Below, one piece after another: positions 28,912 to 45,622 of a stretch of DNA of 64,000 bases (the first letter of the stretch is position 1; each line of letters opens with the position of its first letter). Both the position numbers and the translations under genes were made by a program. The notes under the pieces are model-generated. The model saw only the letters and a list, made by a program, of their open reading frames with translations. It did not search any database and was not told the origin of the DNA. Source of the stretch: a virus; the UHGV virus genome UHGV-0211740. The stretch is one strand, 5' to 3'.

Positions 28912-28937
28912 GGGGGGGCTCTGGCCCCCTTTATTTT
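28912..28937 (+). terminator. rho-independent terminator
   Basis: G5/C5 stem (GGGGG-CTCTGG-CCCCC) followed by TTTATTTT. Confidence 0.5.
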
Positions 28938-31977: not shown

Positions 31978-32694
31978 ATGGCTACGCTTTATAGTGATAT
32001 ATTGATGGACCCGCAGACAGGCGATTTGGCAATAGACAACGGTCTTGAGTTGATAGATTCAAACCAAATAAGTCTGCGCCAGCGCCTGTGGATGAGGTTT
32101 AACACATGGAAGGGGAGCTGGTACTTTGACGAGTTGTTTGGCTTCCCTTATATGGACTTTCTTAGTAAGAAGGTCATGAAGACTGTTCTTGATAACAAGA
32201 TTATGGAGGTGGCAAGACAGGAGCCTGATGTGCTAAACATCATAAACTTCCAGTCTACCATGGATCGAAGATCGAGAACATACCAGGCGTTCTTTGAGGT
32301 TGTTACCAAGGAGAACGAAATTGTAAGACTGGCCTTCGTAGGTCTTGATCAGTTCACTTACCCACAACCTGATGATGGAGCAACTTCTCTTTGTGATGAT
32401 GAAGGCTGGATTAAGTGGGCTAATAAGCTGTACTACCTAATCAACTTCAGACTACCGAGGACAGGTGATGCCACATGGTGGAACCAGTATGCTGGCCCTG
32501 AGATGGAAAACCCGATCCCTGTAGGCTCTTTGTTGACTCAGGATAAAGATCTGCTGATGACTGAGGCAGAACAAACCATTAACCGTAATACCTGGACGCT
32601 TGCTCCAGATGAGCGCGAATACTCTGGCGTTATTGCTACCTCTAATGATGAGGCTATTGCCAACCAGTCTGGTCGTGCTATTGATGTTAACTAA
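31978..32694 (+). CDS. hypothetical baseplate protein
   Basis: 238-aa ORF; translationally close to neighbours. Confidence 0.4.
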   Translation: MATLYSDILMDPQTGDLAIDNGLELIDSNQISLRQRLWMRFNTWKGSWYFDELFGFPYMDFLSKKVMKTVLDNKIMEVARQEPDVLNIINFQSTMDRRSRTYQAFFEVVTKENEIVRLAFVGLDQFTYPQPDDGATSLCDDEGWIKWANKLYYLINFRLPRTGDATWWNQYAGPEMENPIPVGSLLTQDKDLLMTEAEQTINRNTWTLAPDEREYSGVIATSNDEAIANQSGRAIDVN

Positions 32695-32703
32695 GGAGAA
32701 ATC

Positions 32704-33372
32704 ATGGCTGTAGCTTATCCTACAATACCAATTCCAGATCTTGAAGATGCAGAAACAGTCTTGAGCGATGACTTCTTGGTTGTCAACCAGACTGATGGGA
32801 CAAGAAAGGCTAAGATTGATGATGTTGTCAATGATCTTAGTATTACTAAGATAGTTTATTTCACAGAGGGTGGTTATCTTAAAAGTAAGAAAGATTTTGC
32901 CTACGATCCTGAGACTAAGCGCTACTACACGTGGAACGGGGATTATCCTAAAATAATCCTTCCTGATTCCACTGTGGAGGGGGCAGGAGGGGTATCTGCA
33001 AAAGCCTGGTCTGTTTTTGGAGAGCTTGCTGCAACTTCTTCAGGCAGGATAGTTGACTACGGGTCTATCGGCGGTCAGTTGGACATGGATCTTAACGTTG
33101 CAGACACATTTAAAGTTAGGCTTACTTCGAATACCACAATCTCTTTTGAAAATCAAACAGAGGGGCTTAACGAGGTGGCAAGAACTGTGACTGTATGCAT
33201 TACCCAGTCCTCTGGCGGCAACAAGGTTTATTGGCCTGACAATGTTAAATGGGCCTACGGAAGAGATCCTATCCTAACATTCACAGCTGGTGCAACAGAC
33301 ATTTTCAAGTTAGAAACCTACGATAATGGACTAACTTGGTACGGGGCACTGATTATAGCAGGAGCTATCTAA
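32704..33372 (+). CDS. putative fibre/spike adaptor protein with virion-anchor N-terminal domain
   Basis: 222 aa; N-terminus (DDFLVVNQTDGTRKAKIDDVV ... FTEGG ... DFAY ... YTWNG) is paralogous to the N-terminus of the Stf-like fibre at 36007. Confidence 0.45.
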   Translation: MAVAYPTIPIPDLEDAETVLSDDFLVVNQTDGTRKAKIDDVVNDLSITKIVYFTEGGYLKSKKDFAYDPETKRYYTWNGDYPKIILPDSTVEGAGGVSAKAWSVFGELAATSSGRIVDYGSIGGQLDMDLNVADTFKVRLTSNTTISFENQTEGLNEVARTVTVCITQSSGGNKVYWPDNVKWAYGRDPILTFTAGATDIFKLETYDNGLTWYGALIIAGAI

Positions 33373-33373
33373 G

Positions 33374-35971
33374 ATGCGTATTCAACACAACATTGATAAC
33401 GTATTTCAGATGATTGAGGGGCACAGGAAGTGCCTCGATAATAACACAGGTATTACCAACACCACTACACAAAATAAGCTAGTAAACCCTGATGGTCTTA
33501 TAGCTGCAGGGTGGGCAGGTAATAAGATAAACAATGATTGGGCAATGCATGAGGCCCAAGCTGTGTTGATTCTGGGGTACATTGAAGCATATAGGGCATC
33601 GAAAAGCGATTTCTATCTGGACAGGGCAAAAGAGGCTTGGGAAGCTTACAATAGTCATCTCTTGGGAGTATACGCAGTAGAAAGTAAAATGCAAAGACTA
33701 TCCCACTACCCGTTATCTACTGATGGGGTTCCATCCCATGGTGGGTTTAAAGATGTGGTGGTGTCTTTTAACAAAGGTAGAGGAAAAATTCCGGCGGGAT
33801 CTCCGACATGGGGTGAATACCTGGATAAAGCATTCCAGGCGTATAACGGTGTGTTGGGAAGAAACACAGTTGATGCGGATGTTTACGGCGGCACAGATGC
33901 TAACCCCAACTGGACAACATCCGGATTAAGTTGGTGGGTTGAATGGTATATAGCGTGGGACGGTAACCGCTATTGGGCCAACGGCAGCATAGCTGACAGT
34001 GGGCACACATCTGCAGAGTTTGGCACAATACAGCTGCAAGATAAGGGCGTTACAGGTAGCCATAAGGTAACCTACTGTGTGAGATTGCCTCAAGAGCAAG
34101 GTGGATCTGTGATACCTTCAGGATCTCCAGTAGTTGTAAACCCTATAAACGTGGTTGCAGATAATCAGGCTCCGGAATTGGACGGAGAAGAGATGTGGTG
34201 TGACGCTTGTTATCAACTCTACTCTTTGACAGGCGAGGAGAAGTATTACACTGCGTTTAAACAGTCTTACGACAAGCTGCTTAATTTCAGTGATATAAAC
34301 GCCTACGACAAACTGTTTAGAAAGACCACGTTGATTAAGGCACCGTTTACAGATGGTACTTGTCTTGTTGCAGGAACAGTTCCTGCTATGAGCAGGGACA
34401 GTGACGGATATATCAACTTTAGAATGAACGCACGCCAGCCCTGCGAGATAATTCAAAAAGGTACCACCTACAAAATAGGTAGAGATACTGAAATTGTTAT
34501 GAATTTCGGGGGAGAAGGTGTTCTGTTCCAGCCTCATTTCATCATTAACGATGGCAACAATAATAAAAAACAATACAGAATAGGGGTTCCTTTTGGTGCG
34601 GCAGATGTAACAGAGGTAGTTGCCAAAGTTACTGATTTCGTCGAGGTGGTGGGGAAGGATGGTAACCCGTACCTCCTGCCTGAGGAGGAGAACATTGTCG
34701 TAACTGGTGGCGCTAGTGTTAGTATGCAATACGCTACTGACATTTACAACCACTCTGACAACTTCTCCCGTTGCAATATAGCAAAAGGTAAAGTAACTTT
34801 CAATTTCGGAAGAGAGATTTCTTTAAACTCAGTGACTTACCGATCAGATGATGAAATGGTAAGAGTCAAATTCCTTGACAAAGATCGTTGGTTATGGTAT
34901 GCTGATCTATATGCTACTAACGGACAATGGGTAACAGAAACTCTTACTTTAGGGGATTTCAAACTAGACCCAACACAACCTCATCACACCGAGGAGGAGA
35001 TTAAGCCTTTCTTTGCTAACACCAAAGGTATTACCTCTGTAGATTTCAGTCTGAGCGATAGACAGATAGGAAATGGCCTGTTTGATCTGTATTGCGTCAA
35101 TACGCTGCCTCAATTCTATATTGCAGATATGGATGCTTACCTAATCTGGTTTAGTGTATGGATGGCAAGCAAGACAGAATCGGTTGCTAAAGTTGGCGAT
35201 TGCTATGTCAGAAACTACAAGCAAGGGGCATACAGACACACTCCAGGTGTGTTCCCTGCAGGGAAGGTGATAGATAAGGAAAGTTATCTTCTGGAAGAAA
35301 AGCCAAATTGGCCCTACCCAGGCATGCAATACCCAGCGGTATATTGTATGGGCGCGGAAAACATAGATCGCCTCAGGTTGTCAAATACAATTGGGTTTAT
35401 GTACGACTCTCAAGTTTGGTATAATAACACATTTAAAACCGAAGGACCAGTCGCATCCCGCTACGTGTGGCAGAGAGGTAATGAGGGATTGTCTGGTTGG
35501 TGGGAGATGGTAGATAACTCTAAACTCCAGTCAAGATCTTTTGTTGCTGCGTGCCGCACAATATATGAGCTCAAGAAACATAAAGAGCCTGTTGATGAAA
35601 AACTTTTCCTGTTCTGCCAGAGATGGGCATGGTTCCTCAACAGATTCCAATCATCTCATTCTGGAAATCTTCCCACAGACTTTAACACCTCTGGAGGATA
35701 TTCTTATCAAGACAGAGGAGACAGGATGTGGGTGGTCGGTGAGTGGCTTGCAGGTTGCTGCTGGTTAGGCTTGTGTGGGTATTCAGAGACAATACCTCAA
35801 ATAGATATTGTTGTAGAAGCTTGCATGAAGCTGCTGCAAAAGCACCACTTCATTAATGGCGATAATGTTTTAAACGGCTGCTGGGCAGTTTCTGATCCGG
35901 TAGGCTATCACTCTGGCGAAATCCTTCGCGGTCTAGGCCTTTATGCTCAATACCGTGGATTGTACCTTTAA
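33374..35971 (+). CDS. putative tail spike / glycan-degrading enzyme-like protein
   Basis: 865 aa, very Trp/Tyr/Asn-rich; ATG overlaps the stop of the adaptor gene (TAAGATG); enzymatic role is a guess from composition. Confidence 0.35.
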   Translation: MRIQHNIDNVFQMIEGHRKCLDNNTGITNTTTQNKLVNPDGLIAAGWAGNKINNDWAMHEAQAVLILGYIEAYRASKSDFYLDRAKEAWEAYNSHLLGVYAVESKMQRLSHYPLSTDGVPSHGGFKDVVVSFNKGRGKIPAGSPTWGEYLDKAFQAYNGVLGRNTVDADVYGGTDANPNWTTSGLSWWVEWYIAWDGNRYWANGSIADSGHTSAEFGTIQLQDKGVTGSHKVTYCVRLPQEQGGSVIPSGSPVVVNPINVVADNQAPELDGEEMWCDACYQLYSLTGEEKYYTAFKQSYDKLLNFSDINAYDKLFRKTTLIKAPFTDGTCLVAGTVPAMSRDSDGYINFRMNARQPCEIIQKGTTYKIGRDTEIVMNFGGEGVLFQPHFIINDGNNNKKQYRIGVPFGAADVTEVVAKVTDFVEVVGKDGNPYLLPEEENIVVTGGASVSMQYATDIYNHSDNFSRCNIAKGKVTFNFGREISLNSVTYRSDDEMVRVKFLDKDRWLWYADLYATNGQWVTETLTLGDFKLDPTQPHHTEEEIKPFFANTKGITSVDFSLSDRQIGNGLFDLYCVNTLPQFYIADMDAYLIWFSVWMASKTESVAKVGDCYVRNYKQGAYRHTPGVFPAGKVIDKESYLLEEKPNWPYPGMQYPAVYCMGAENIDRLRLSNTIGFMYDSQVWYNNTFKTEGPVASRYVWQRGNEGLSGWWEMVDNSKLQSRSFVAACRTIYELKKHKEPVDEKLFLFCQRWAWFLNRFQSSHSGNLPTDFNTSGGYSYQDRGDRMWVVGEWLAGCCWLGLCGYSETIPQIDIVVEACMKLLQKHHFINGDNVLNGCWAVSDPVGYHSGEILRGLGLYAQYRGLYL

Positions 35972-36006
35972 CATAAGGGGGCTGTTTGCCCCCTTCAGGA
36001 GAAAGA

Positions 36007-38487
36007 ATGGCTGATATTAAAGTTGTCAGAATTGAATCTCTTCCTGCCACCACAGCAGTGGCAGAGGATGATTACCTGGTTGTTCAACAACCAGACCTGA
36101 CCCGTCGTGTAAAAATTGGCGATGTTGTCCATGTGGATGGGACTGTTTCTCATGTGATCTCCTTTAAGGAAGGTGGTAAGTTAAATGGCCCAATGGATTT
36201 TGCCTACTTCGAAGAGGAAGACCTCTACCTGCGTTGGAAGGGCGAATTCCCGCACACTGTTCCTGCACTGTCCTCACCATACTCTGATGGCGGTATTACT
36301 GATGCCACATGGATGGTATATACAGACCCTTCCTTAAGAGAGGAGCTGGAATCAACAATTGGCGCATCCATGATTATGACAGCCGAAGGGCAGTCTGTCC
36401 AGGATGTAATGGATGTTACAGTTAAGACAGCCAACGATGCTAAAGCGCTTGCACAGCGGGTGGATTTTGGCACTGTGCACACAGTGGGTGATGTTATTCA
36501 CCTGGATAATTTTGTTGGCCCTGCAGTTATTGAAGAGGGAAGAACCACCAACTATCCTTCTGAAGCCACTGGTGAAAAATTTCTGAACGGTGTGGTATCT
36601 CGTCGTGATACTACAACTGTTGATGGCATTTTCCGTGGCGCTACCTCTGGAGCTATGTACACCATTGCAGTAACCAACGGTGTCGCAACAACAAAAAGAA
36701 TAGCCCTTCGTGATGAATTTAAACGCCTGGAGGCAAGCAACCCAACAAGAACAGTTATCCGTGCTGGAGATGATTTAAACACGGCAGGGTACTTGCAGCT
36801 TGATGCAACAGGCCGTTGGGGTATGTGGAACCAACAAACAGCTTCGTGGCAACCTCTTGCTATAGAGCAAGGCGGTACAGGGGCCAGAGATGCCGCAGGT
36901 GCACGTATTAACTTAGGGGCTTTCTATAAGCAACGTGCAGCCCTTGAGCCAAATTTCAATATCAATAACTTGACTGGTAATCAGGATGGTGTATACTACC
37001 AGCCGATGACTGCTTATGCAACCGAGGCAAATGGTTACCCTGCAGGTTCTGGTGCTGGTCACTTGATTGTTTGGCAGAACAATGCTAACGGCGGTACAGG
37101 TTGTCGTCAGGAATACTACCCGTTCTCTAACGTGGATGTTTGGTATCTGAGAACCTACCAAGCCAACACAAACCAGTGGACTGCATGGCAGCCGATGGTC
37201 AGACCTCGTAACGATGATACCTTTAGAGCGCACATCGGTCTTGGTTCCAGAAATTCCCCTACCTTCGGGCACCTTTACCTGTCTCAAAGCTCTGCGGATG
37301 TTAAGTCAGCATCAGGTATTGTTCACGGAGACAAATACAGTGCTGACGGCGTTCTTGAGCATGGGTATAGAATTTACTCCGAGGTAAGAAACGACAATAA
37401 GGCTTGGTTGACAATCCACCTCCACAAAGGTGCAAAAGGGTCTGAAACTCATAGATATTTAGGCTTCCGTGAAGACGGTGTGTTAGATTGTCCTAAATAT
37501 ATGCAGGTTGGTGATCTGAACGGTCAGCTGGCAAACTGGGGACTTGGAGAATGGATCCGCAGTTCAGGAGCAGAAAGAGGTTTCTGGGGATCCAAGAAAG
37601 CCGCCAAGATGGTCATCTGGGATGGCGGTATGGATGAGCAAGGTGAAGGCACTCTGGAATGGGGTGTTTATAACAACCGCAAGGCTAAATGGGAACCTTT
37701 GCCGATAGGTTGCGGTGGCACCAGTGCTAGGACTGTGGGAGATGCCCAGGCACAATTCAGAATCCCTCTTGCAGCAGGTGTCAGACCATATATAAACCTG
37801 CCTAGAACTGCAGCGATGCAGGATGGCAAGTATTATCCGATTATTGTCAGAACAGATCCTAACCATGCGCCAACAATCGGGACAGATTTAACCATCGTTA
37901 CCAGATCTTCTTCTGGCAGCGATCCTATGAACTGTGCTACACTGCAGTGCCACTACAGAACTGGTGGCTGGACTGATCGTGGTGACTTCTTTACCGGGTC
38001 GATAAATTTCTACCAGAAGGAGAAGGCGATACTTGGGTGCGTTGCTCCAACAAGGGGTAAACAAGAGTATGTTGCGTTCTATGTAGAGGCACGTGCCTTC
38101 CCTGTAACAGTGTATGCCAGCGCTGACGTAATAGAGGTGTCAACAAGAGAGGCAGACTGGCAGGTTGGCAATGTAACAGACAACCAAGACGGTGTTAAAT
38201 TCTGTGCACCTCTAGCATCTGCTGACTTGAATCTAGCAATCAAAGGTGACAATGTAACAAACACTCGACCTCTGGCTGAATTTAATGGTGTAACAGGTTT
38301 CTACACCAATCAGTGGATGTATCGTGGGTCTTCTGACAGATATTTCCTGTCCAATAAAACAGAGTTTGGCCTGACAGAGTTATGGTGCAACGGTCTTAAC
38401 TACATCTGCCCAGGTAGTCAGACTACTCGAAAAGCACTGTTCTCTAACGCAGGGTTCCAGGCTGATAGGAAAGAACAGAGGATCTGA
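36007..38487 (+). CDS. side tail fibre protein, lambda Stf-like
   Basis: 826 aa from ATG 36007 (AGGAG RBS); segment YYPIIVRTD...SDPMNCATL...GGWTDRGDFFTG...YQKEKAILG matches the conserved lambda Stf region from memory (YYPVVVMRS...GDPMNNCEF...GGWTDRG...NNERAILG). Confidence 0.6.
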   Translation: MADIKVVRIESLPATTAVAEDDYLVVQQPDLTRRVKIGDVVHVDGTVSHVISFKEGGKLNGPMDFAYFEEEDLYLRWKGEFPHTVPALSSPYSDGGITDATWMVYTDPSLREELESTIGASMIMTAEGQSVQDVMDVTVKTANDAKALAQRVDFGTVHTVGDVIHLDNFVGPAVIEEGRTTNYPSEATGEKFLNGVVSRRDTTTVDGIFRGATSGAMYTIAVTNGVATTKRIALRDEFKRLEASNPTRTVIRAGDDLNTAGYLQLDATGRWGMWNQQTASWQPLAIEQGGTGARDAAGARINLGAFYKQRAALEPNFNINNLTGNQDGVYYQPMTAYATEANGYPAGSGAGHLIVWQNNANGGTGCRQEYYPFSNVDVWYLRTYQANTNQWTAWQPMVRPRNDDTFRAHIGLGSRNSPTFGHLYLSQSSADVKSASGIVHGDKYSADGVLEHGYRIYSEVRNDNKAWLTIHLHKGAKGSETHRYLGFREDGVLDCPKYMQVGDLNGQLANWGLGEWIRSSGAERGFWGSKKAAKMVIWDGGMDEQGEGTLEWGVYNNRKAKWEPLPIGCGGTSARTVGDAQAQFRIPLAAGVRPYINLPRTAAMQDGKYYPIIVRTDPNHAPTIGTDLTIVTRSSSGSDPMNCATLQCHYRTGGWTDRGDFFTGSINFYQKEKAILGCVAPTRGKQEYVAFYVEARAFPVTVYASADVIEVSTREADWQVGNVTDNQDGVKFCAPLASADLNLAIKGDNVTNTRPLAEFNGVTGFYTNQWMYRGSSDRYFLSNKTEFGLTELWCNGLNYICPGSQTTRKALFSNAGFQADRKEQRI

Positions 38488-39806
38488 TCAACAACACCTT
38501 TACCTCTAAATGTGGCAATGGTGCCGCGCTGAAAGGTCAGGCAGAGTTCAGATCTACTCCAGAGGCTGGTCAGGTTATTGTTCGTGATGTTGTAGGCACA
38601 GCCCATAGATTCTACAATTTCAACAAAGATGGCACTTTCTCAGCCCCTGGTGGTTTTGTATGCCACACGGGTGGTGACTGGAACAACCAGTTTGGGCCTA
38701 ACAACCCGTCAAAAATAATGGCTGGTAATGTCAATGGGCCTGAGGGTTCGATGGTCGTTGGTGGATTGTCTGTGGCGTTTTCTGGAAACTATGCTTTCCA
38801 AATGGCTGGTCGCCTTGATCGATTATACACCAGGTCTATCGAGGGAGGTAACCATAGGGCGTGGAACAAAGTCATACAACACAGAGGCCAGGGTCTGGGG
38901 ACAGACGATCTTAATAGCTATGATGGAACTCGTGACGGTATCTATCATCAGGGTGCAAATTCTGACGCACTCACATCCCGTCATTATCCTGCTCCGTACG
39001 CTGGTACGCTGATTGTTTATCAGAACACTGCTAACCAGTTGACAGGGTGTGTGCAGGAGTATATAACCTATTTTGGTGACAGGTATACTCGTGCTGGCAA
39101 CACGAATGGTGAAGATTTTGTTTGGGAAGAGTGGAGACACGATGCGGGTAAGGGAATCCAGTTAAGACCTAATTACACTTTTGGTGAAACCAGTAATCAA
39201 CTGGAAATTCATGTCGGTGCTAATGGTCTTCCCTCCAACGCAGATGGCTTACCTAAGAATGATGCTGTACTCCATTATTGGGGTAACGGCAGCACAGGGG
39301 ATCGTCCAAACGTGTTAGAGTTTAAGGTTCGTGACGAGTCTCAAGCAAATTGGGTATGGCATTGCGGTACCTTGCCAGATAACTCAAGATATCTTTCTGT
39401 AAATGGTGCTGTGAATTGCACATCTGTCAATCAGAGTTCTGACAGAGACCTGAAAGATAACATATCTGTTATTCCTGATGCGTTAGAAGCTATCCGGAAG
39501 ATGAAGGGTTATACTTACACTCTTAAAGAGAACGGTATGCCTTATGCAGGTGTTATAGCACAAGAGGTGCTTGAAGCGCTGCCGGAAGCAGTTAGCTCTT
39601 TCGTGCAAAGAAAGGAAATCCCAAACCCTGATCAAGATGGAACTCCTTTGATAACAGAGGAAAGATTCTACAGCGTGGATTACGCAGCCGTAACAGGCTT
39701 GCTTGTCCAGGTTTGCAGGGAACAGGATGATAAAATAACCGCCCTTGAGGAGCAGGTTAAAAAATTGACAGAGGTTGTTACTGGGTTGCAAGAGAAATTG
39801 AAGTAA
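38469..39806 (+). CDS. tail fibre C-terminal segment with S74-type intramolecular chaperone domain (no own start codon upstream of 38718)
   Basis: Frame open from 38469; protein-like sequence with no ATG/GTG/TTG until 38718; C-terminus SDRDLKDNISVIPDALEAIRKMKGYTYTLKENGMPYAGVIAQEVLEALPEAV fits the fibre auto-chaperone signature; contains a repeat of the GTLIVYQN.AN..TGC.QEY domain also present in the 36007 protein. Confidence 0.55.
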   Translation, partial: ERTEDLINNTFTSKCGNGAALKGQAEFRSTPEAGQVIVRDVVGTAHRFYNFNKDGTFSAPGGFVCHTGGDWNNQFGPNNPSKIMAGNVNGPEGSMVVGGLSVAFSGNYAFQMAGRLDRLYTRSIEGGNHRAWNKVIQHRGQGLGTDDLNSYDGTRDGIYHQGANSDALTSRHYPAPYAGTLIVYQNTANQLTGCVQEYITYFGDRYTRAGNTNGEDFVWEEWRHDAGKGIQLRPNYTFGETSNQLEIHVGANGLPSNADGLPKNDAVLHYWGNGSTGDRPNVLEFKVRDESQANWVWHCGTLPDNSRYLSVNGAVNCTSVNQSSDRDLKDNISVIPDALEAIRKMKGYTYTLKENGMPYAGVIAQEVLEALPEAVSSFVQRKEIPNPDQDGTPLITEERFYSVDYAAVTGLLVQVCREQDDKITALEEQVKKLTEVVTGLQEKLK

Positions 39807-39813
39807 CTGTTTT

Positions 39814-39843
39814 GCCCTCGCTTCGGCGGGGGCTTTTTGTTTG
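39814..39843 (+). terminator. rho-independent terminator
   Basis: GCCCTCGC-TTCG-GCGGGGGC hairpin then TTTTTGTTTG. Confidence 0.65.
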
Positions 39844-39905: not shown

Positions 39906-40496
39906 ATGTTTTTATGGGAAAGGCCTAGATACCTTCCAGATATTAGATTAGAGTTGCTGGCAGATATTGTCACGTTTAAAAGCCCGTTTACAGGTAAAAC
40001 GCAAAAAGTAACCTATGCCACACCTAACTGGAAAGGCACTTTGACGGTTTCCAATATTAGCGAATCGCAGTTGCTTGAGCTCAAGAGTTTTGTTGACCAA
40101 GTTTACAAAGATGGGAATATCTTTCTTATCAAAACTTATGGTCATTCGGTGACAGCCAATGAGCCAATCGCTCTCGGACCGACTGGTAACGACGATTTTT
40201 TGAAGACGGTTGGTTGGGAGCCGAACAGGGATATAGCCAGAGCTGGGGATAAGATATCTGTTAATGATGAGTTGAAAGTGGTAACAGCTCCAGTACGTAG
40301 TGATGGTGTTGGGGCCGCTGTTATAAACATATCTCCAAGACTTAGGAAACCTATTGCAGCAGGGGATACTATGAAGATAATAACTCAATCCCCGAAGGGT
40401 AGGTTTCATATCAGAGATATTTATAAAATTAAGCAAAAAGTTGATGCTATGCAAAAAGGCGATAATATAGTTATCAATTTCTTTGAGGATTTCTAA
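39906..40496 (+). CDS. putative minor tail / tail-tip protein
   Basis: 196-aa ORF with GGAGG RBS; first of three small genes preceding the J-like gene. Confidence 0.4.
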   Translation: MFLWERPRYLPDIRLELLADIVTFKSPFTGKTQKVTYATPNWKGTLTVSNISESQLLELKSFVDQVYKDGNIFLIKTYGHSVTANEPIALGPTGNDDFLKTVGWEPNRDIARAGDKISVNDELKVVTAPVRSDGVGAAVINISPRLRKPIAAGDTMKIITQSPKGRFHIRDIYKIKQKVDAMQKGDNIVINFFEDF

Positions 40497-40497
40497 G

Positions 40498-41049
40498 ATG
40501 ATCAGAGCTCCATTAGATAATTTATTTATTGAAAATATAGAGCTTGATGGCGTTGAGATCTTAATTGCTGCAAAACTGGAGCTACCAACAGGAACTGTCA
40601 GGGTGTGCTCAGGCACTGGTGTTGTAGTAATTGAAGGGCAACATTTTATAGGTATAGGTGGATCAGCTACATTAACTGCTGTGTCGGAGAAAGATGCCAC
40701 CAACTTCGGATCTGTGGTAGCAACATTGAACGGGTTTGACCCTAAATATGTTGGTGATTTGTTGAAGACTGAGTATTCAGGTTGTCGTGCCACGTTATAC
40801 ATTACAGCCATGGAGAATGGTCTGCCAGTAACCACTAATGGCTTGTTTGACGGACTTATAACAGATATGGCTATTCAGACAGGAGAGAATAGTGCTCTAT
40901 CTATATCCATATCTTCAATCTTCAACAGCTGGCTAAGAGGGTTCCCTTATCGCTACACAGAAGAAAGTCATAGCTCAAGAAACGACAACGATAGATTTTT
41001 TAAATATGTGGATCAGGTGGCTAGTCGCCCGATCATTTGGGAGGTTTAA
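40498..41049 (+). CDS. putative minor tail / tail-tip protein
   Basis: 183 aa from ATG 40498; stop overlaps next start (TAATG). Confidence 0.4.
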   Translation: MIRAPLDNLFIENIELDGVEILIAAKLELPTGTVRVCSGTGVVVIEGQHFIGIGGSATLTAVSEKDATNFGSVVATLNGFDPKYVGDLLKTEYSGCRATLYITAMENGLPVTTNGLFDGLITDMAIQTGENSALSISISSIFNSWLRGFPYRYTEESHSSRNDNDRFFKYVDQVASRPIIWEV

Positions 41050-41477
41050 TGAGTATCATACATCCTCGTTTAGTAGACTGGCAAGAAAGATTGTTGAAGG
41101 TGTTTGACGAAGAGTCAGCCGTTCCGTTCGAGTGGGGATTTCACGATTGTTGCACTTTTGCAGCCAAGTGTGTTGATGCTCAGTATGGAACAGATATTCT
41201 CTCTAACTTCGAAGGCACGTACAAAACAGAACTGGAAAGTAAGAGATGGTGTATGTTACATTTCAAAACCACCAACTTGCCTACCATTTTTGATCTCTTT
41301 ATGACCAGACTGGATACTCCTAAACAGGTTCAGCGTGGAGATATTGTTATTTTCAAAGGTCTGAACGGACTTACCGCTGGCGTGTTTTGGAACAATCAGA
41401 TTTGGTCAAAAGGTGATAAAGGGGTCTTTATGTTTGACATGAAAGATTCTATCGTTGTTGATGTCTGGAGGTATTAA
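41049..41477 (+). CDS. putative tail-associated NlpC/P60-like peptidase
   Basis: 142 aa; candidate catalytic Cys context GFHDCCTFAAKCV resembles the G-x-D-C motif of NlpC/P60 peptidases; position directly upstream of the J-like gene. Confidence 0.4.
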   Translation: MSIIHPRLVDWQERLLKVFDEESAVPFEWGFHDCCTFAAKCVDAQYGTDILSNFEGTYKTELESKRWCMLHFKTTNLPTIFDLFMTRLDTPKQVQRGDIVIFKGLNGLTAGVFWNNQIWSKGDKGVFMFDMKDSIVVDVWRY

Positions 41478-44400
41478 TGCCAATTGCAATGATTGATAAC
41501 ATCGTTGCTTCTGCAAGATCTTCGAGCTATGACTGGAACGCATCCAAGGCGGCTCTGGCTGACAGTCTGAACACTGTTACCACCAGAACTCTGGATAAGA
41601 TTTTTGAGGGCAACAAATCTTACAGAGGCCAGCAAGATAGACAAAAGCTTCTCAGATCTTCAGCTGCACCTTGTTCTGTAGTGTATGGGAAGACACGCAC
41701 ATCGGGATTGCTTGCGTTTTTGGAGCAGGACAGGGACAGAACCCTCCATTGTGCCATTGTTCTTGCCAATCACCCTCTGGAAGGTGTAGAAGACATACTT
41801 ATCGACGGTAATCCTATTTCTTCATATGGAGATTTGGTATCGTGGGAGCTGCATAACGACAGAAAAACATCTGATCCTTTCATGGGGACACACTGCCCTT
41901 CGTGGTCACCAGACATGATAGGTAGAGGGATCAGTTGGCTGCGTGCCAGCTTCAAATTTGACCCTAACAAGTTTCCTTTTGGGTTGCCAAACGTTACACT
42001 CGTCAAGGTTGGTAAAAAATGCTATGATCCTCGCATCAGCAAAGAGGTGTATACCAATAACGCGGCCTTGGTGATTCTGGACTATTTAAGAACATACCTT
42101 AAATGTCCTGACGAAACCATCAACTGGGAGTCCTTCAAGGAAGCTGCCAACATATGTGACGAGGCTGTAAGAAACGCTGACGGAACCAGTGAGCGTCGTT
42201 ACACCATCAATGGTGAGTTCGACATGGATGAGGCTCCAGCAAGCATCATGGCAGAAATGCTGAAAGCCTGTGGTGCAGATCTTAGCTATGTGGCTGGTAA
42301 GTATGGATTGCTGGTTGGGGCCTATTATGGACCAGCAACAATGACACTGGGTGAGGATTGTGTTTGTGGTGAAGTCAAGATCTATCCAGAAGCTTCCTTT
42401 GACAAAAGATCCAACACAATAACTGGTAGATTCACCAGTCCTGCCAAAGGATACTCTGAAACAGATTTCCCATCAGTGTTTGTTCCAGAGTGGATAGAGA
42501 AGGATGGGGAAAGAAAGATAATCGATATAGATTATCGTTTTGTCACCAGTCCTTATCAGGCCCAGCGTGTTTCCGCGATATTCTTAAGACGTGCCAGAGC
42601 TGGTAGGATTATTGAAGTCACGTGCAATATGCGTGGTTTTAAATTTAAGCCTGGACGCTACGTCACAATGAACCTCCCAAGTATTGGCATAGTAGGCCAA
42701 GAGATGAGAGTTCTTGAGTGGGAGTTCACTAAAAAGGGCGGTGTTAAGGTAAAACTTCGTCAAGATGCGAAAGAGTGGAATGATGCCACAGGTCAACTTC
42801 CTGACTCTGGTGATGTAGATATTCCTGTGTCCCCATCTGGTGTGGCTCAACCGCAAAACTTCAGATTCTCTGTTCTTCAAGCTGGAGAAGTAACTCATGG
42901 TGTTTTAGCTTGGGACAACGTTGGGACTTACGCTCAAAACATTGTGCAGGTCAGGAAAAATGGAGAGATTGTCTGGACAGCACAGACAGTTGAGCAGTTT
43001 GTCCGTGTTGAAGGTCTGACTAAAGGGTCTTACACAGCCACTGTTGTTGCAACATCTTATAAAGGCGGTGTATCTCCAGAAGCGTACTGTGAGTTTAACA
43101 TTCAGGCACCTGAGGCTCCGGTTTCTGTAGAAGTTAAGCAGGGATATTTTGCTATCACCTTAATTCCGCACAGCAGGGATTTAGCAAGTGTCAGCACCCA
43201 GTATGACTTTTGGACATCCGGCATGACAAGGTTGCCTGACACTAGTGATGCAACCGTCACTTCAAAAGCTACTCGCATGGGTGTTGGTTCAACTTGGACA
43301 TCTGAAGGTCTGCAGAACGATAAGGTTTATTATTGGTATATTCGAACCACAAACGCTTTTGGTAGTTCTCAGTTTGTAGAGTGTGCTGCACGCTGCTATA
43401 CCTCTATTGAAGATTTGATGCCTCAGATAGATGCTGAATTTAAAAAGACAGAGACTTATAAAGAGTTGATGAGCACTTTAGATTCTTCTATCGAAGAGGT
43501 TGAAAATCGGGTCACAGAACTTAACAAGTACATGGATGGTAGAGTTGATGAAGCTTTTGATCACATGGAAAGTGAGTTCTCTAGAGTAGACAAGCTGTAT
43601 GCTCAGCTGGGAGATAGGGTAGGGGTATTCATCCAAGAAACCAGTGAAAACTTCCAAGATGTTAATGGAACGCTTACCGCTCTCGACCAGAAACTGGTAG
43701 CCACTCAGAACAAGTTTACAGATGATCTCTCTAAAGAAAGTGGCAAGCTAACCTCTCTGATCCAGACCACTAACAAAGCTACAACTGATCTTCTTAATAA
43801 GAAAACAGAAGCTTTGGACGAGAAGATTGTTTCGACCAGGGGCGAGTTGGAAGATGCTTTAGCACAGGAAAGCGCTGAGCTGAACTCTCTGATTGTATCT
43901 ACCAATAAAACGACTACAGATCTCCTTAATCAGAAAACCGAGGCACTGGACAATAAGCTGACGGCAACGAAAGGTGAGTTGACCAACAACTTGAATAATG
44001 AGAGTGCTAAACTGTCGTCGTTGATTGAGACAACCAACAAATCCACCACTGATCTTCTTAACAAGAAAACAGATGCGTTGGATGAAAAACTGGTTGCTGC
44101 ACAGGGTGAGCTAACTGAGCAGATTGGCGATGTTGAAAAAGGTTATCTGGCTGGAGATAAGAGCCTAGAAGGTAAGTTGAATACTCAGAGATCTGAGTTG
44201 GATGCAAGCATTCTGAGTACTAATCAGGCTACTGTGGATTTGCTGAATAGAACTTCTCAGACTCTTGACCAGAAGATTAGCCAGACTAACGCCACGGTAT
44301 CTAAAAACTACACCACTCTAGATGGCAAGATCAACACCACCAAATCTGATCTCAATACGTTGATCTCTACCACCAACAAGGCCACAACGGACCTGCTGAA

Positions 44401-45622
44401 TCAGAAAACTGCAGCCTTATCTGAACAATTAACCTCTGCTAAAGGGCAGATTACAACCAACACCAATAATATTACGGGGTTGGATAATAAGCTTACCCAA
44501 GCTAAGAAAGATTTGTCTGCAAATATTTCTGAAACTAATCAGGCCACTGTTGACCTGATTAACGGAACAGCGTCAGCTATTCGTCAAGAACTTGCTGTTG
44601 CTAAGCAGGAGATCATTGATGATGTTGGAGATGTGTCCGAGATCAGGGCTGCAGTAGCTACAACATCTAAGGCTGTAACCGACTTAGAGGGCAAAGTAAA
44701 CGCTCAGTGGGGCACAAAAATACAGGTAGACTCCGCAGGGAATAAATATGTTGCAGGTATCCAGTTGGGGATGGAAGGGTCTGGGGGCCAAGTTCAATCC
44801 TACTTCATGGTTAGTGCAAACAATTTTGCGGTATATAACCCTGGGAATGGAACAGCAACCCTTGCCTTTGCAATCAAGAACAACCAGGCGTTCTTGAAAG
44901 ATGCCTTCATAGAGAATGGCACAATCTCTTCAGCCAAGATTGCACAAGAGATTTCGTCAAACAACTACGATGGCAACGGGTACCACAAATACGGCTGGTA
45001 TATTAACAAGAATGGGCACGCCCAGTTTATGGATGTGTGGGTGAAAGGCAACATCAACGCTAGTGCAGGTAACTTCACAGGAGCAGTTAACGCCACCAGC
45101 GGTACCTTCCGTGGCGATGTTTATGCCAACAACGGTAGTTTTAGAGGTACCATAGACGCAACAGGTGGTACTTTCCGTGGGCGTGTAGAAGCTTCTGTTA
45201 TCCGTGCCAACCAGTTTGAAGGTGCAATTGTTGCACACAGGACCTATGGTGACTGTCCTCCGGTATATAACTCCCAGCAGAGGGTTTGCCGCTGGAAATG
45301 GAGATATGTGGATAACGTGCAAGGCCAAGGTAAGAACGTAACATTCTTCTTTAAACTGAACGGTACGCTCGCCAGCTCCCAGCTTAACGTTTGGATAGCC
45401 GGACATCAAATCCTTGCAGGTAAGAAGTACGGAAACGACAACAACGGCATGTGTGCGGTAGGGATAACGGGTCTAGGTGAACAGACCATAGACATTATCG
45501 TTGAAATTTACACACCATGGTCAACGTCAAGCGTGACAGGAGTTACAATATCTTGTCCTACTGTTGTGGTGAGCCGATCCAACTCAAGTTTCCAAGGCCC
45601 TTGGAACGAGTCTCACGACTAA
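41477..45622 (+). CDS. tail tip / central fibre protein, lambda J-like (host specificity protein family)
   Basis: 1381 aa; several blocks match lambda gpJ from memory (GYFAITLIPH, WYIRTTNAFGSSQFVE, KYVAGIQLGMEGSGGQVQSYFMVSANNFAVYNP...AFLKDAFI); central run of about ten degenerate repeats (TTNK.TTDLLN.KTEALD.KL). Confidence 0.75.
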   Translation: MPIAMIDNIVASARSSSYDWNASKAALADSLNTVTTRTLDKIFEGNKSYRGQQDRQKLLRSSAAPCSVVYGKTRTSGLLAFLEQDRDRTLHCAIVLANHPLEGVEDILIDGNPISSYGDLVSWELHNDRKTSDPFMGTHCPSWSPDMIGRGISWLRASFKFDPNKFPFGLPNVTLVKVGKKCYDPRISKEVYTNNAALVILDYLRTYLKCPDETINWESFKEAANICDEAVRNADGTSERRYTINGEFDMDEAPASIMAEMLKACGADLSYVAGKYGLLVGAYYGPATMTLGEDCVCGEVKIYPEASFDKRSNTITGRFTSPAKGYSETDFPSVFVPEWIEKDGERKIIDIDYRFVTSPYQAQRVSAIFLRRARAGRIIEVTCNMRGFKFKPGRYVTMNLPSIGIVGQEMRVLEWEFTKKGGVKVKLRQDAKEWNDATGQLPDSGDVDIPVSPSGVAQPQNFRFSVLQAGEVTHGVLAWDNVGTYAQNIVQVRKNGEIVWTAQTVEQFVRVEGLTKGSYTATVVATSYKGGVSPEAYCEFNIQAPEAPVSVEVKQGYFAITLIPHSRDLASVSTQYDFWTSGMTRLPDTSDATVTSKATRMGVGSTWTSEGLQNDKVYYWYIRTTNAFGSSQFVECAARCYTSIEDLMPQIDAEFKKTETYKELMSTLDSSIEEVENRVTELNKYMDGRVDEAFDHMESEFSRVDKLYAQLGDRVGVFIQETSENFQDVNGTLTALDQKLVATQNKFTDDLSKESGKLTSLIQTTNKATTDLLNKKTEALDEKIVSTRGELEDALAQESAELNSLIVSTNKTTTDLLNQKTEALDNKLTATKGELTNNLNNESAKLSSLIETTNKSTTDLLNKKTDALDEKLVAAQGELTEQIGDVEKGYLAGDKSLEGKLNTQRSELDASILSTNQATVDLLNRTSQTLDQKISQTNATVSKNYTTLDGKINTTKSDLNTLISTTNKATTDLLNQKTAALSEQLTSAKGQITTNTNNITGLDNKLTQAKKDLSANISETNQATVDLINGTASAIRQELAVAKQEIIDDVGDVSEIRAAVATTSKAVTDLEGKVNAQWGTKIQVDSAGNKYVAGIQLGMEGSGGQVQSYFMVSANNFAVYNPGNGTATLAFAIKNNQAFLKDAFIENGTISSAKIAQEISSNNYDGNGYHKYGWYINKNGHAQFMDVWVKGNINASAGNFTGAVNATSGTFRGDVYANNGSFRGTIDATGGTFRGRVEASVIRANQFEGAIVAHRTYGDCPPVYNSQQRVCRWKWRYVDNVQGQGKNVTFFFKLNGTLASSQLNVWIAGHQILAGKKYGNDNNGMCAVGITGLGEQTIDIIVEIYTPWSTSSVTGVTISCPTVVVSRSNSSFQGPWNESHD

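Follow-up and report, generated by a model that had tools for sequence, protein, structure and literature searches.

In several branched tail systems, an anchor protein carries an enzyme-type receptor-binding protein (RBP) that has no anchor of its own, as in CBA120 TSP1-4, G7C gp66/gp63.1, K1-5/SP6, and KP32/KP34. A related arrangement occurs in T2/T6-type gp37-gp38 and in Mu gpS-gpU, where the product of the downstream gene sits noncovalently at the C-terminus of the upstream fiber and makes the contact with the host. Here, we analyze a pair of adjoining genes at positions 32704-35971 of a 64,000-nucleotide (nt) stretch of the virus genome UHGV-0211740, hereafter the window. The window is from a Vequintavirus (98% identity with OX460980), and the two open reading frames (ORFs) of the pair, of 222 and 865 amino acids (aa), correspond to gp43 and gp42 of phage rV5, whose names we use throughout, and to gp140 and gp141 of phage phi92. 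The rV5 and phi92 pairs, together with PVP-SE1 gp051/gp050, are direct orthologues that occupy the same position after the sheath-initiator gene. Amino acid identity is 96% with rV5 (96.4% for gp43, 95.8% for gp42) and 34-42% with phi92, and nothing is different at the gene level.

Accounts of the Vequintavirinae and Stephanstirmvirinae list these orthologues separately, one as a "tail fiber" and the other as a "tail protein", and the BASEL study of 2021 called it unclear which genes build which fiber (PMC8594841). RBPseg maps of Bas49 and Bas54 resolved three fibers only (PMC12143355). In the 2026 cryo-electron microscopy (cryo-EM) study of phi92, fiber II, described as "short, thick, and rigid" and located at the base of fiber I, was left unassigned; gp15, gp140, gp150, and gp151 were tried singly without a good fit, and a gp140-gp141 combination was not considered (PMC13450770). 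The rV5-like and phi92-like phages are among the commonest coliphage isolates and are candidates for phage therapy.

We propose that gp43 and gp42 form a two-part receptor-binding appendage of the virion, in which an adaptor stalk bears a glycosidase-fold head, and we put the probability of this reading at about 0.7. The comparative evidence supports a portable adaptor-plus-glycosidase-fold tail module, as judged from sequence. An initial annotation of the window had already suggested that the large protein is docked through a separate adaptor; the pairing of the genes, the lineage-specific anchors, the predicted fold, and the literature reports of virion detection all favor that suggestion, which nevertheless overlooked a dedicated C-terminal domain that we regard as the probable docking element. 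Like the anchors of the branched systems, gp43 and its counterparts have a recognized virion-binding N-terminal domain (that of gp43, PF18668, is named after CBA120 TSP1 and G7C gp66), and gp42, like the second RBP of those systems, is anchorless with a conserved N-terminal segment. Unlike in the branched systems, the putative docking element of gp43 is a distinct C-terminal domain of ∼105 aa, the cargo is a predicted (α/α)6 barrel with β-sandwich insertions and not a trimeric β-helix tailspike, the adaptor seems restricted to a single type of cargo, and from one lineage to the next the two genes are obligately paired. The partners in T2/T6 and Mu are adhesins or chaperones of ∼170-260 aa, whereas gp42 is four times larger than its fiber and has an enzyme fold; at 865 aa, and found in virions, it does not resemble the small partners of the Tfa/gpU/gp38 type. 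Six-hairpin enzymes of GH8, GH48, GH76, GH88, GH105, and the AGE family share only 9-14% identity with gp42 and, unlike it, do not have a barrel split by β-rich insertions of ∼170 and ∼345 aa. The genes themselves are known and annotated, and we did not find the pairing rule or the anchor swapping described in the accessible literature; what is modestly new is that a putative docking domain is obligately coupled, from lineage to lineage, with a family of six-hairpin tail proteins while the anchor of the adaptor is swapped.

Results

The two genes occur together across phage lineages. By tblastn, gp42 was found in 525 phage records and the gp43 C-terminal domain (C-domain, residues ∼115-222) in 523, with near-identical genus distributions, and the two matches adjoin wherever both coordinates are listed. 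In every lineage examined, the C-domain closes the gene directly 5′ of the gp42-like gene; these comprise Vequintavirus, Phapecoctavirus, Justusliebigvirus, the podophage genera Pienvirus and Crifsvirus, Rosemountvirus, Kolesnikvirus, the jumbo phage genus Asteriusvirus, and phages of Vibrio, Photobacterium, and Achromobacter. In six named phages (Pienvirus phiR8-01, Crifsvirus GAP52, Rosemountvirus UPF_BP2, Kolesnikvirus phiEa21-4, Phapecoctavirus nepoznato, and Vibrio phage D509), a small gene encoding 157-269 aa stands directly before the gp42-like gene. Over their last ∼105 aa, these small proteins share 35-45% identity with gp43 residues ∼115-222 (BLASTP E-values of 1e-15 to 1e-19), and hidden Markov model (HMM) matches of their C-domains reach 1e-29 to 1e-33, while their N-terminal parts are mutually unrelated. 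An independent IMG/VR sample gave the same picture: in 25 of the 25 loci that had upstream sequence, the C-domain closes an ORF whose stop is at most 45 nt ahead of the gp42-like match. The apparent outliers Photobacterium PhCF1.2, the jumbo phage PBECO4, and Achromobacter phage JWF also have the pair. In phi92, genes 140 (157 aa) and 141 (958 aa) are the same pair, and gp140 consists of an anchor peptide of ∼40 aa followed directly by the C-domain. All Vequintavirus relatives of gp43 that we found are 222 aa long, at 74-97% identity.

We note a reduced form of the large protein in Achromobacter phage JWF (locus L039, 4180-6418), a 537-aa gp42 relative with the N-terminal segment and the barrel helices and no β insertions. 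This barrel-only protein is still preceded by a gene that ends in the C-domain, and it defines the conserved core of the pair.

The limits of both ORFs are exactly those of the initial annotation (Table 1), which had the stop of the first overlapping the ATG of the second. The two are in fact 1 nt apart, with TAA at 33370-33372, G at 33373, and ATG at 33374; genuine overlaps (TAATG, ATGA) are present at the same gene pair in other phage lineages. At the 18 junctions with an unambiguous start for the large gene, stop and start are separated by -10 to +1 nt. The TAA-G-ATG spacing, with a Shine-Dalgarno sequence within the gp43 gene, suggests that gp43 and gp42 are made together.

At its N-terminus, gp43 resembles the neighboring long fiber, gp41. 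The sharing of an anchor between the 222-aa protein and an Stf-like fiber, as annotated, holds: the two N-termini are 37% identical over 99 aa (E = 5e-18), and both proteins contain PF18668 Tail_spike_N, with gp43 at 40.6 bits (E = 2.8e-10) against a curated gathering cutoff of 25 and the gp41 homologue also above the cutoff. The PDB sequence matches of the gp43 N-terminal domain are tailspike N-terminal regions, and gp43 has a profile match to phrog_7760, "tail fiber protein" (E = 4.5e-117). The anchor peptide that precedes PF18668 is common to gp43, gp41, phi92 gp140, and the phi92 endosialidase gp143. When an HMM of its first ∼45 aa, built from gp43, gp41, phi92 gp140 and gp143, and phiEa21-4 gp70 and gp71, was run against the whole window, the gp43 and gp41 ORFs were the sole matches. 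The occurrence of this peptide in gp41, gp43, gp140, and gp143 suggests a single type of docking site serving several different fibers. The phi92 endosialidase gp143 (locus L037, 19765-19900) begins with the ∼40-aa peptide in the same way as gp41 (window 36007-36150).

The initial annotation had the 222-aa protein carrying only an anchor domain, which overlooks its second conserved domain, residues ∼115-222. This C-domain has the signature Q-x-x-G-x-N-K-V-x-W-P...K-W...P-x-L...D...(T/S)-x-D-x-G-x-T-W-x-G, which includes one Asp-box. Searches against Pfam and PDB sequences returned no match for it, and within those searches a T4 gp10-like branching domain was not detectable. The BASEL annotation labels the 222-aa protein "sialidase domain protein" and the 865-aa protein "lateral tail fiber protein with glycosidase domains". 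We reject the first label for gp43, which has one S/T-x-D-x-G-x-T-W motif and no BNR/Asp-box repeats; at ∼105 aa the domain is too small for a β-propeller, so gp43 is not a sialidase or BNR-repeat protein, and Pfam BNR matched in only one of seven C-domain homologues, at E = 0.055 at best. The single Asp-box probably explains the label.

The C-domain stays constant while the anchor of the small protein differs by lineage. Vequintavirus-type phages have PF18668, phiR8-01 has PF03906 (the T7 tail-fiber N-terminal domain), an IMG/VR phage has PF12571 (the tail-collar fiber N-terminal domain), and Ala-rich coiled coils occur elsewhere. In phiR8-01, a T7-like phage, the two genes stand in the gp17 position, between an internal virion protein and the holin, and the T7 tail-binding domain is found in the small protein only. 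The anchors of K1-5/SP6 and KP32 likewise have the T7 gp17 N-terminal domain.

The large protein keeps its N-terminus throughout. An exhaustive HMMER search over 1.84 billion cluster representatives returned 236 gp42 relatives, most of which begin at one conserved N-terminus without extension; G16, F20, G26, and N38 are conserved in at least 80% of 51 sequences. Since this N-terminus is constant across differing virion types, gp42 itself cannot use lineage-specific attachment sites, and the N-terminal segment becomes a candidate partner surface for the gp43 C-domain. As had been annotated, gp42 lacks the anchor (best BLASTP match to it, E = 0.66) and is rich in Trp and Tyr, which make up 8.7% of its residues, the highest value among those plus-strand ORFs of the window that have 200 aa or more. 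Relatives with N-terminal extensions of ∼280 aa (Goslar gp92, P0037, P0038, and P0043) were tried as Rosetta-stone candidates and rejected, as they have no detectable homology to the C-domain; the match of the Goslar-type extensions to the C-domain HMM is insignificant and confined to the last β-strand motif, with an hhalign probability of 0.8%.

No Pfam family and no PDB sequence match was obtained for gp42, and thus no glycoside hydrolase (GH) family by sequence; a profile search of PDB sequences matched hairpins of cellobiose 2-epimerase and GH76 (E = 3e-4). An AlphaFold2 model from a 51-sequence alignment is confident (predicted local distance difference test, pLDDT, 89.1; predicted template modeling score, pTM, 0.84) and predicts the fold of the six-hairpin (α/α)6 glycosidase superfamily, in line with the earlier description of the protein as enzyme-like. 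A first model from a 5-sequence alignment was discarded (pLDDT 54). In the retained model, the barrel comprises residues 59-96, 269-305, and 655-864, and the β-rich insertions lie at ∼100-268 and 306-650. Candidate catalytic residues, the family-conserved polar and acidic E60, D270, R721, Q680, and E849, are all retained in the window protein, and E60, D270, and R721 lie at or just before helix starts. Since the window protein departs from the family consensus at several other aromatic or acidic positions, catalysis by gp42 is plausible but uncertain. A review lists phi92 gp141, which is 34% identical to gp42 (E = 1e-176), as a predicted glycosidase (PMC5380687).

Two side observations concern the domains of this family. 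The β-sandwich at residues 482-580 of gp42 is also the C-terminus of the phiEa21-4 fiber gp70 (locus L006, 2909-4417; a three-piece tblastn match), which suggests a mobile carbohydrate-binding-like module; the N-terminus of gp70 is common to the adaptor gp71, mirroring gp41 and gp43 in the window. In addition, some gp42 relatives (P0097, P0080, P0038, and P0142) are fused to PF05939 (a lambda gpM-like minor tail protein domain), to PF23844/PF23845 (noncontractile tail sheath domains), or to a Calx-beta domain. The PF05939 fusions indicate that the module is displayed on tails, and a few family members dispense with the adaptor via this direct fusion.

Published mass spectrometry places both proteins in particles: gp42 and gp43 were both detected in rV5 virions (PMC3606486), and in virions of S144 a pair of "tail proteins", ORF16 (21 kDa) and ORF17 (111 kDa), was found, the probable gp42 homologue with 25 peptides (PMC7432712). 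S144 is a relative of Rosemountvirus, and its ORF16/ORF17 is probably a gp43/gp42-type pair, equated on size and position alone. Strong purifying selection acts on gp43 and gp42, with ratios of nonsynonymous to synonymous substitution rates (dN/dS) relative to rV5 of 0.048 for gp43 and 0.037 for gp42, at dS ∼0.5; the ratio for the N-terminal half of gp43 is 0.009.

Discussion

A conserved C-domain, swapped anchors, and a constant gp42 N-terminus are most simply read as an adaptor (the small protein), a socket (its C-domain), and a cargo (gp42). We suggest that gp43 is a short stalk, presumably trimeric, whose N-terminal peptide and PF18668 domain would plug into the tail at the type of site that the neighboring fiber gp41 uses. 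Its C-terminal ∼105 aa would be a dedicated docking domain on which the anchorless gp42 is held, probably via its conserved N-terminal segment. The (α/α)6 head with its β-sandwich, carbohydrate-binding-like insertions would then be presented to the host surface polysaccharide, which gp42 is predicted to bind and probably to cleave. Docking domain and large protein would move as one unit, and the small protein would exchange just its N-terminal anchor to suit each virion. Physical docking, the trimeric state, the contact surfaces, the catalytic activity, and the substrate are what we infer from these comparisons.

A stronger form of this proposal is tentative, at somewhat less than even odds in our estimate: that an obligate plug-and-socket cassette has moved by anchor exchange among at least 10 lineages (podo-, myo-, and jumbo phages of Escherichia, Salmonella, Erwinia, Yersinia, Vibrio, Photobacterium, and Achromobacter), and that the heterocomplex is the phi92/rV5-like fiber II. 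The gp140-gp141 heterocomplex would be an obvious candidate for fiber II of phi92. If the pairing rule is true, it provides a concrete candidate complex for existing cryo-EM maps, a previously undescribed docking domain with which the enzyme-fold head could be grafted onto other phages through exchange of a short anchor alone, and a pointer to a widespread, uncharacterized family of virion-borne six-hairpin proteins.

Several points weigh against a stalk-and-head appendage. Six-hairpin enzymes are usually monomers, which makes for an awkward stoichiometry on a trimeric stalk. A protein that joins the C-domain to a gp42-like sequence was not found. The pairwise identities for C-domain and gp42 correlate with Pearson coefficients of 0.54-0.61 and Spearman coefficients of 0.20-0.25; this mirror-tree correlation is moderate to weak and inseparable from shared ancestry, and we give it no weight. 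Neither the cryo-EM study of Bas49/Bas54 nor that of phi92 assigned gp43/gp42-type proteins (PMC12143355, PMC13450770). Finally, the window gp42 differs from the family consensus by W100Y, W274M, Y622H, W643K, Y651M, D703N, and W715N, and Vequintavirus gp42 may, given these deviations, bind without cleaving.

That last point leads to the alternative which survives best, although we consider it unlikely: the adaptor model is right, and Vequintavirus gp42 is a noncatalytic lectin that binds a conserved glycan. The seven off-consensus positions (W100, W274, Y622, W643, Y651, D703, and W715) fit a lectin, as does the lack of a GH family by sequence, and the best structural neighbors include nonhydrolytic epimerases. 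The most conserved acidic residues, E60, D270, and E849, are nevertheless retained, gp42 is under strong purifying selection, and the phi92 orthologue gp141 figures in a review as a glycosidase, albeit only a predicted one (PMC5380687).

It is improbable, in our judgment, that gp43 and gp42 are two independent virion proteins, with the C-domain of gp43 acting as a receptor-binding tip, gp42 attaching by itself, and their adjacency reflecting shared regulation or inheritance. The C-domain does lie at the fiber's distal end, the usual place for receptor binding, and contains an Asp-box, and the authors of the phi92 study named gp140 alone as a fiber candidate (PMC13450770). Yet the pairing is invariant in podo-, myo-, and jumbo phages, with the change of anchor confined to the small protein, and the gp42-like N-terminus is constant despite unrelated virion attachment sites. 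In phiR8-01, moreover, no other route of gp42 to a T7-type tail is evident, and an identity of 35-45% between C-domains from Vibrio to Escherichia hosts is atypical of a host-specific receptor-binding tip.

A third possibility, which we hold to be very improbable, is that gp43 needs gp42 for its folding, as a large chaperone or transient cap that has no function in the mature particle. Fiber chaperones are typically encoded directly 3′ of the fiber C-terminus they serve and covary with it, and the gene order and tight coupling of gp43 and gp42 would suit such a role. Against it stand the detection of gp42 in purified rV5 virions (PMC3606486) and the peptides of its probable S144 homologue (PMC7432712). 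The gp42-like proteins, which measure 865-1700 aa and combine a complete glycosidase fold with carbohydrate-binding-like insertions, are unlike known fiber chaperones, and some are fused to structural tail proteins. An Alteromonas "transient chaperone cap", to which a BFVD match had drawn our attention, was set aside as a parallel, being a different fiber/chaperone pair.

That the 222-aa gene is a truncated pseudogene of an Stf-like fiber, as the initial annotation allowed and as might be thought from its sharing just the first ∼100 aa with the long neighboring fiber, is excluded for practical purposes by the strong purifying selection on both genes (dN/dS of 0.048 and 0.037, and 0.009 in the N-terminal half of gp43), and gp43 moreover has a constant length of 222 aa in its Vequintavirus relatives, its own Shine-Dalgarno sequence, a widely conserved second domain, and a presence in virions.

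Genomic context and further observations

The positions of the features discussed are collected in Table 1. A megablast search with 32704-35971 matched 120 phage records, the closest being Vequintavirinae sp. EcoIv14a_Aya (98.4%); rV5 and its relatives come next, at ∼90%. In rV5, where gp43 is labeled "tail fiber protein" and gp42 "tail protein", genes for the baseplate hub, spike, and sheath initiator are followed by gp43, gp42, and the long fiber gp41. Two intrinsic-terminator-like hairpins (Table 1, first and last rows) likely bound one transcription unit that runs from the hub genes through gp43, gp42, and gp41.

Table 1. Positions in the window of the gp43/gp42 pair, its domains, and neighboring elements
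Feature	Positions	Strand	Basis
Intrinsic-terminator-like hairpin 3′ of the tape-measure gene	28912..28931	+	Terminator scan; rV5 annotates a terminator at the same spot
AAGGAG, Shine-Dalgarno-like, 5′ of the 222-aa ORF	32693..32698	+	Read from sequence
222-aa putative adaptor/short stalk protein, rV5 gp43 and phi92 gp140 homologue	32704..33372	+	ORF; phrog_7760
Anchor peptide, gp43 aa 1-48, motif I.I.DL....V..DDFLVV.Q.D.TRK.KI.DVV	32704..32847	+	
PF18668 Tail_spike_N domain, gp43 aa 51-104, CBA120 TSP/G7C gp66 N-terminal type	32854..33015	+	Pfam
C-terminal domain, gp43 aa ∼115-222 (∼105 aa), proposed docking domain for gp42	33046..33369	+	Homologue comparison
AGGAG, Shine-Dalgarno of the 865-aa ORF, inside the 3′ end of the 222-aa ORF, 9 nt 5′ of the ATG	33360..33364	+	
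865-aa tail protein with predicted six-hairpin (α/α)6 glycosidase fold, rV5 gp42/phi92 gp141 homologue	33374..35971	+	
Family-conserved N-terminal segment of gp42 (helix aa 2-23 and NTG.T motif)	33374..33547	+	
First helical hairpin of the predicted (α/α)6 barrel, aa 59-96; conserved E60 and Q62 at its start	33548..33661	+	
Second helical hairpin of the predicted barrel, aa 269-305; conserved D270 at its start	34178..34288	+	
β-Sandwich subdomain, gp42 aa 482-580, in the large β-rich insertion	34817..35113	+	phrog_23426, E = 8.7e-14
C-terminal barrel helices, gp42 aa 655-864; conserved Q680, W699, R721, and E849	35336..35965	+	
Next fiber, N-terminal 822 aa of the rV5 gp41 homologue (826-aa ORF, ATG at 36007)	36007..38487	+	
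Strong intrinsic-terminator-like hairpin 3′ of the fiber genes	39814..39833	+	Terminator scan

Between the gp42 stop and the gp41 Shine-Dalgarno sequence lies a perfect GC-rich hairpin, GGGGGC-TGTTT-GCCCCC, at 35976-35995. It has no T-run and was therefore not called by the terminator scan; it may serve as an attenuator or in RNA stability. The fiber gene that follows differs from that of rV5. Whereas rV5 gp41 is a single ORF of 1272 aa, its homologue in the window (36007-39806) is divided into ORFs of 826 and 362 aa by a 1-nt deletion near 38464 (CAGGCTG-ATAGG), as seen against rV5 and MaxTheCat. In the 5′ direction, the second frame is open as far as ∼38470, and the C-terminal piece has a Peptidase_S74 chaperone domain. 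The split could be a sequencing or assembly error, a true inactivation, or a split fiber.

Further downstream, at 39906-45622, genes of siphophage tail-tip type (196, 188, 146, and 1381 aa) stand within this myophage baseplate and fiber region. Their rV5 counterparts are gp40-gp37 (distal tail protein, tail protein, cell-wall hydrolase, and central fiber J), and the block, although odd in architecture, is already known in rV5. Last, ∼20 GenBank records of "Campylobacter phage" (MG0656xx, host Campylobacter jejuni) are ∼90% identical to this region of the Escherichia coli Vequintavirus and are likely mislabeled or contaminated.

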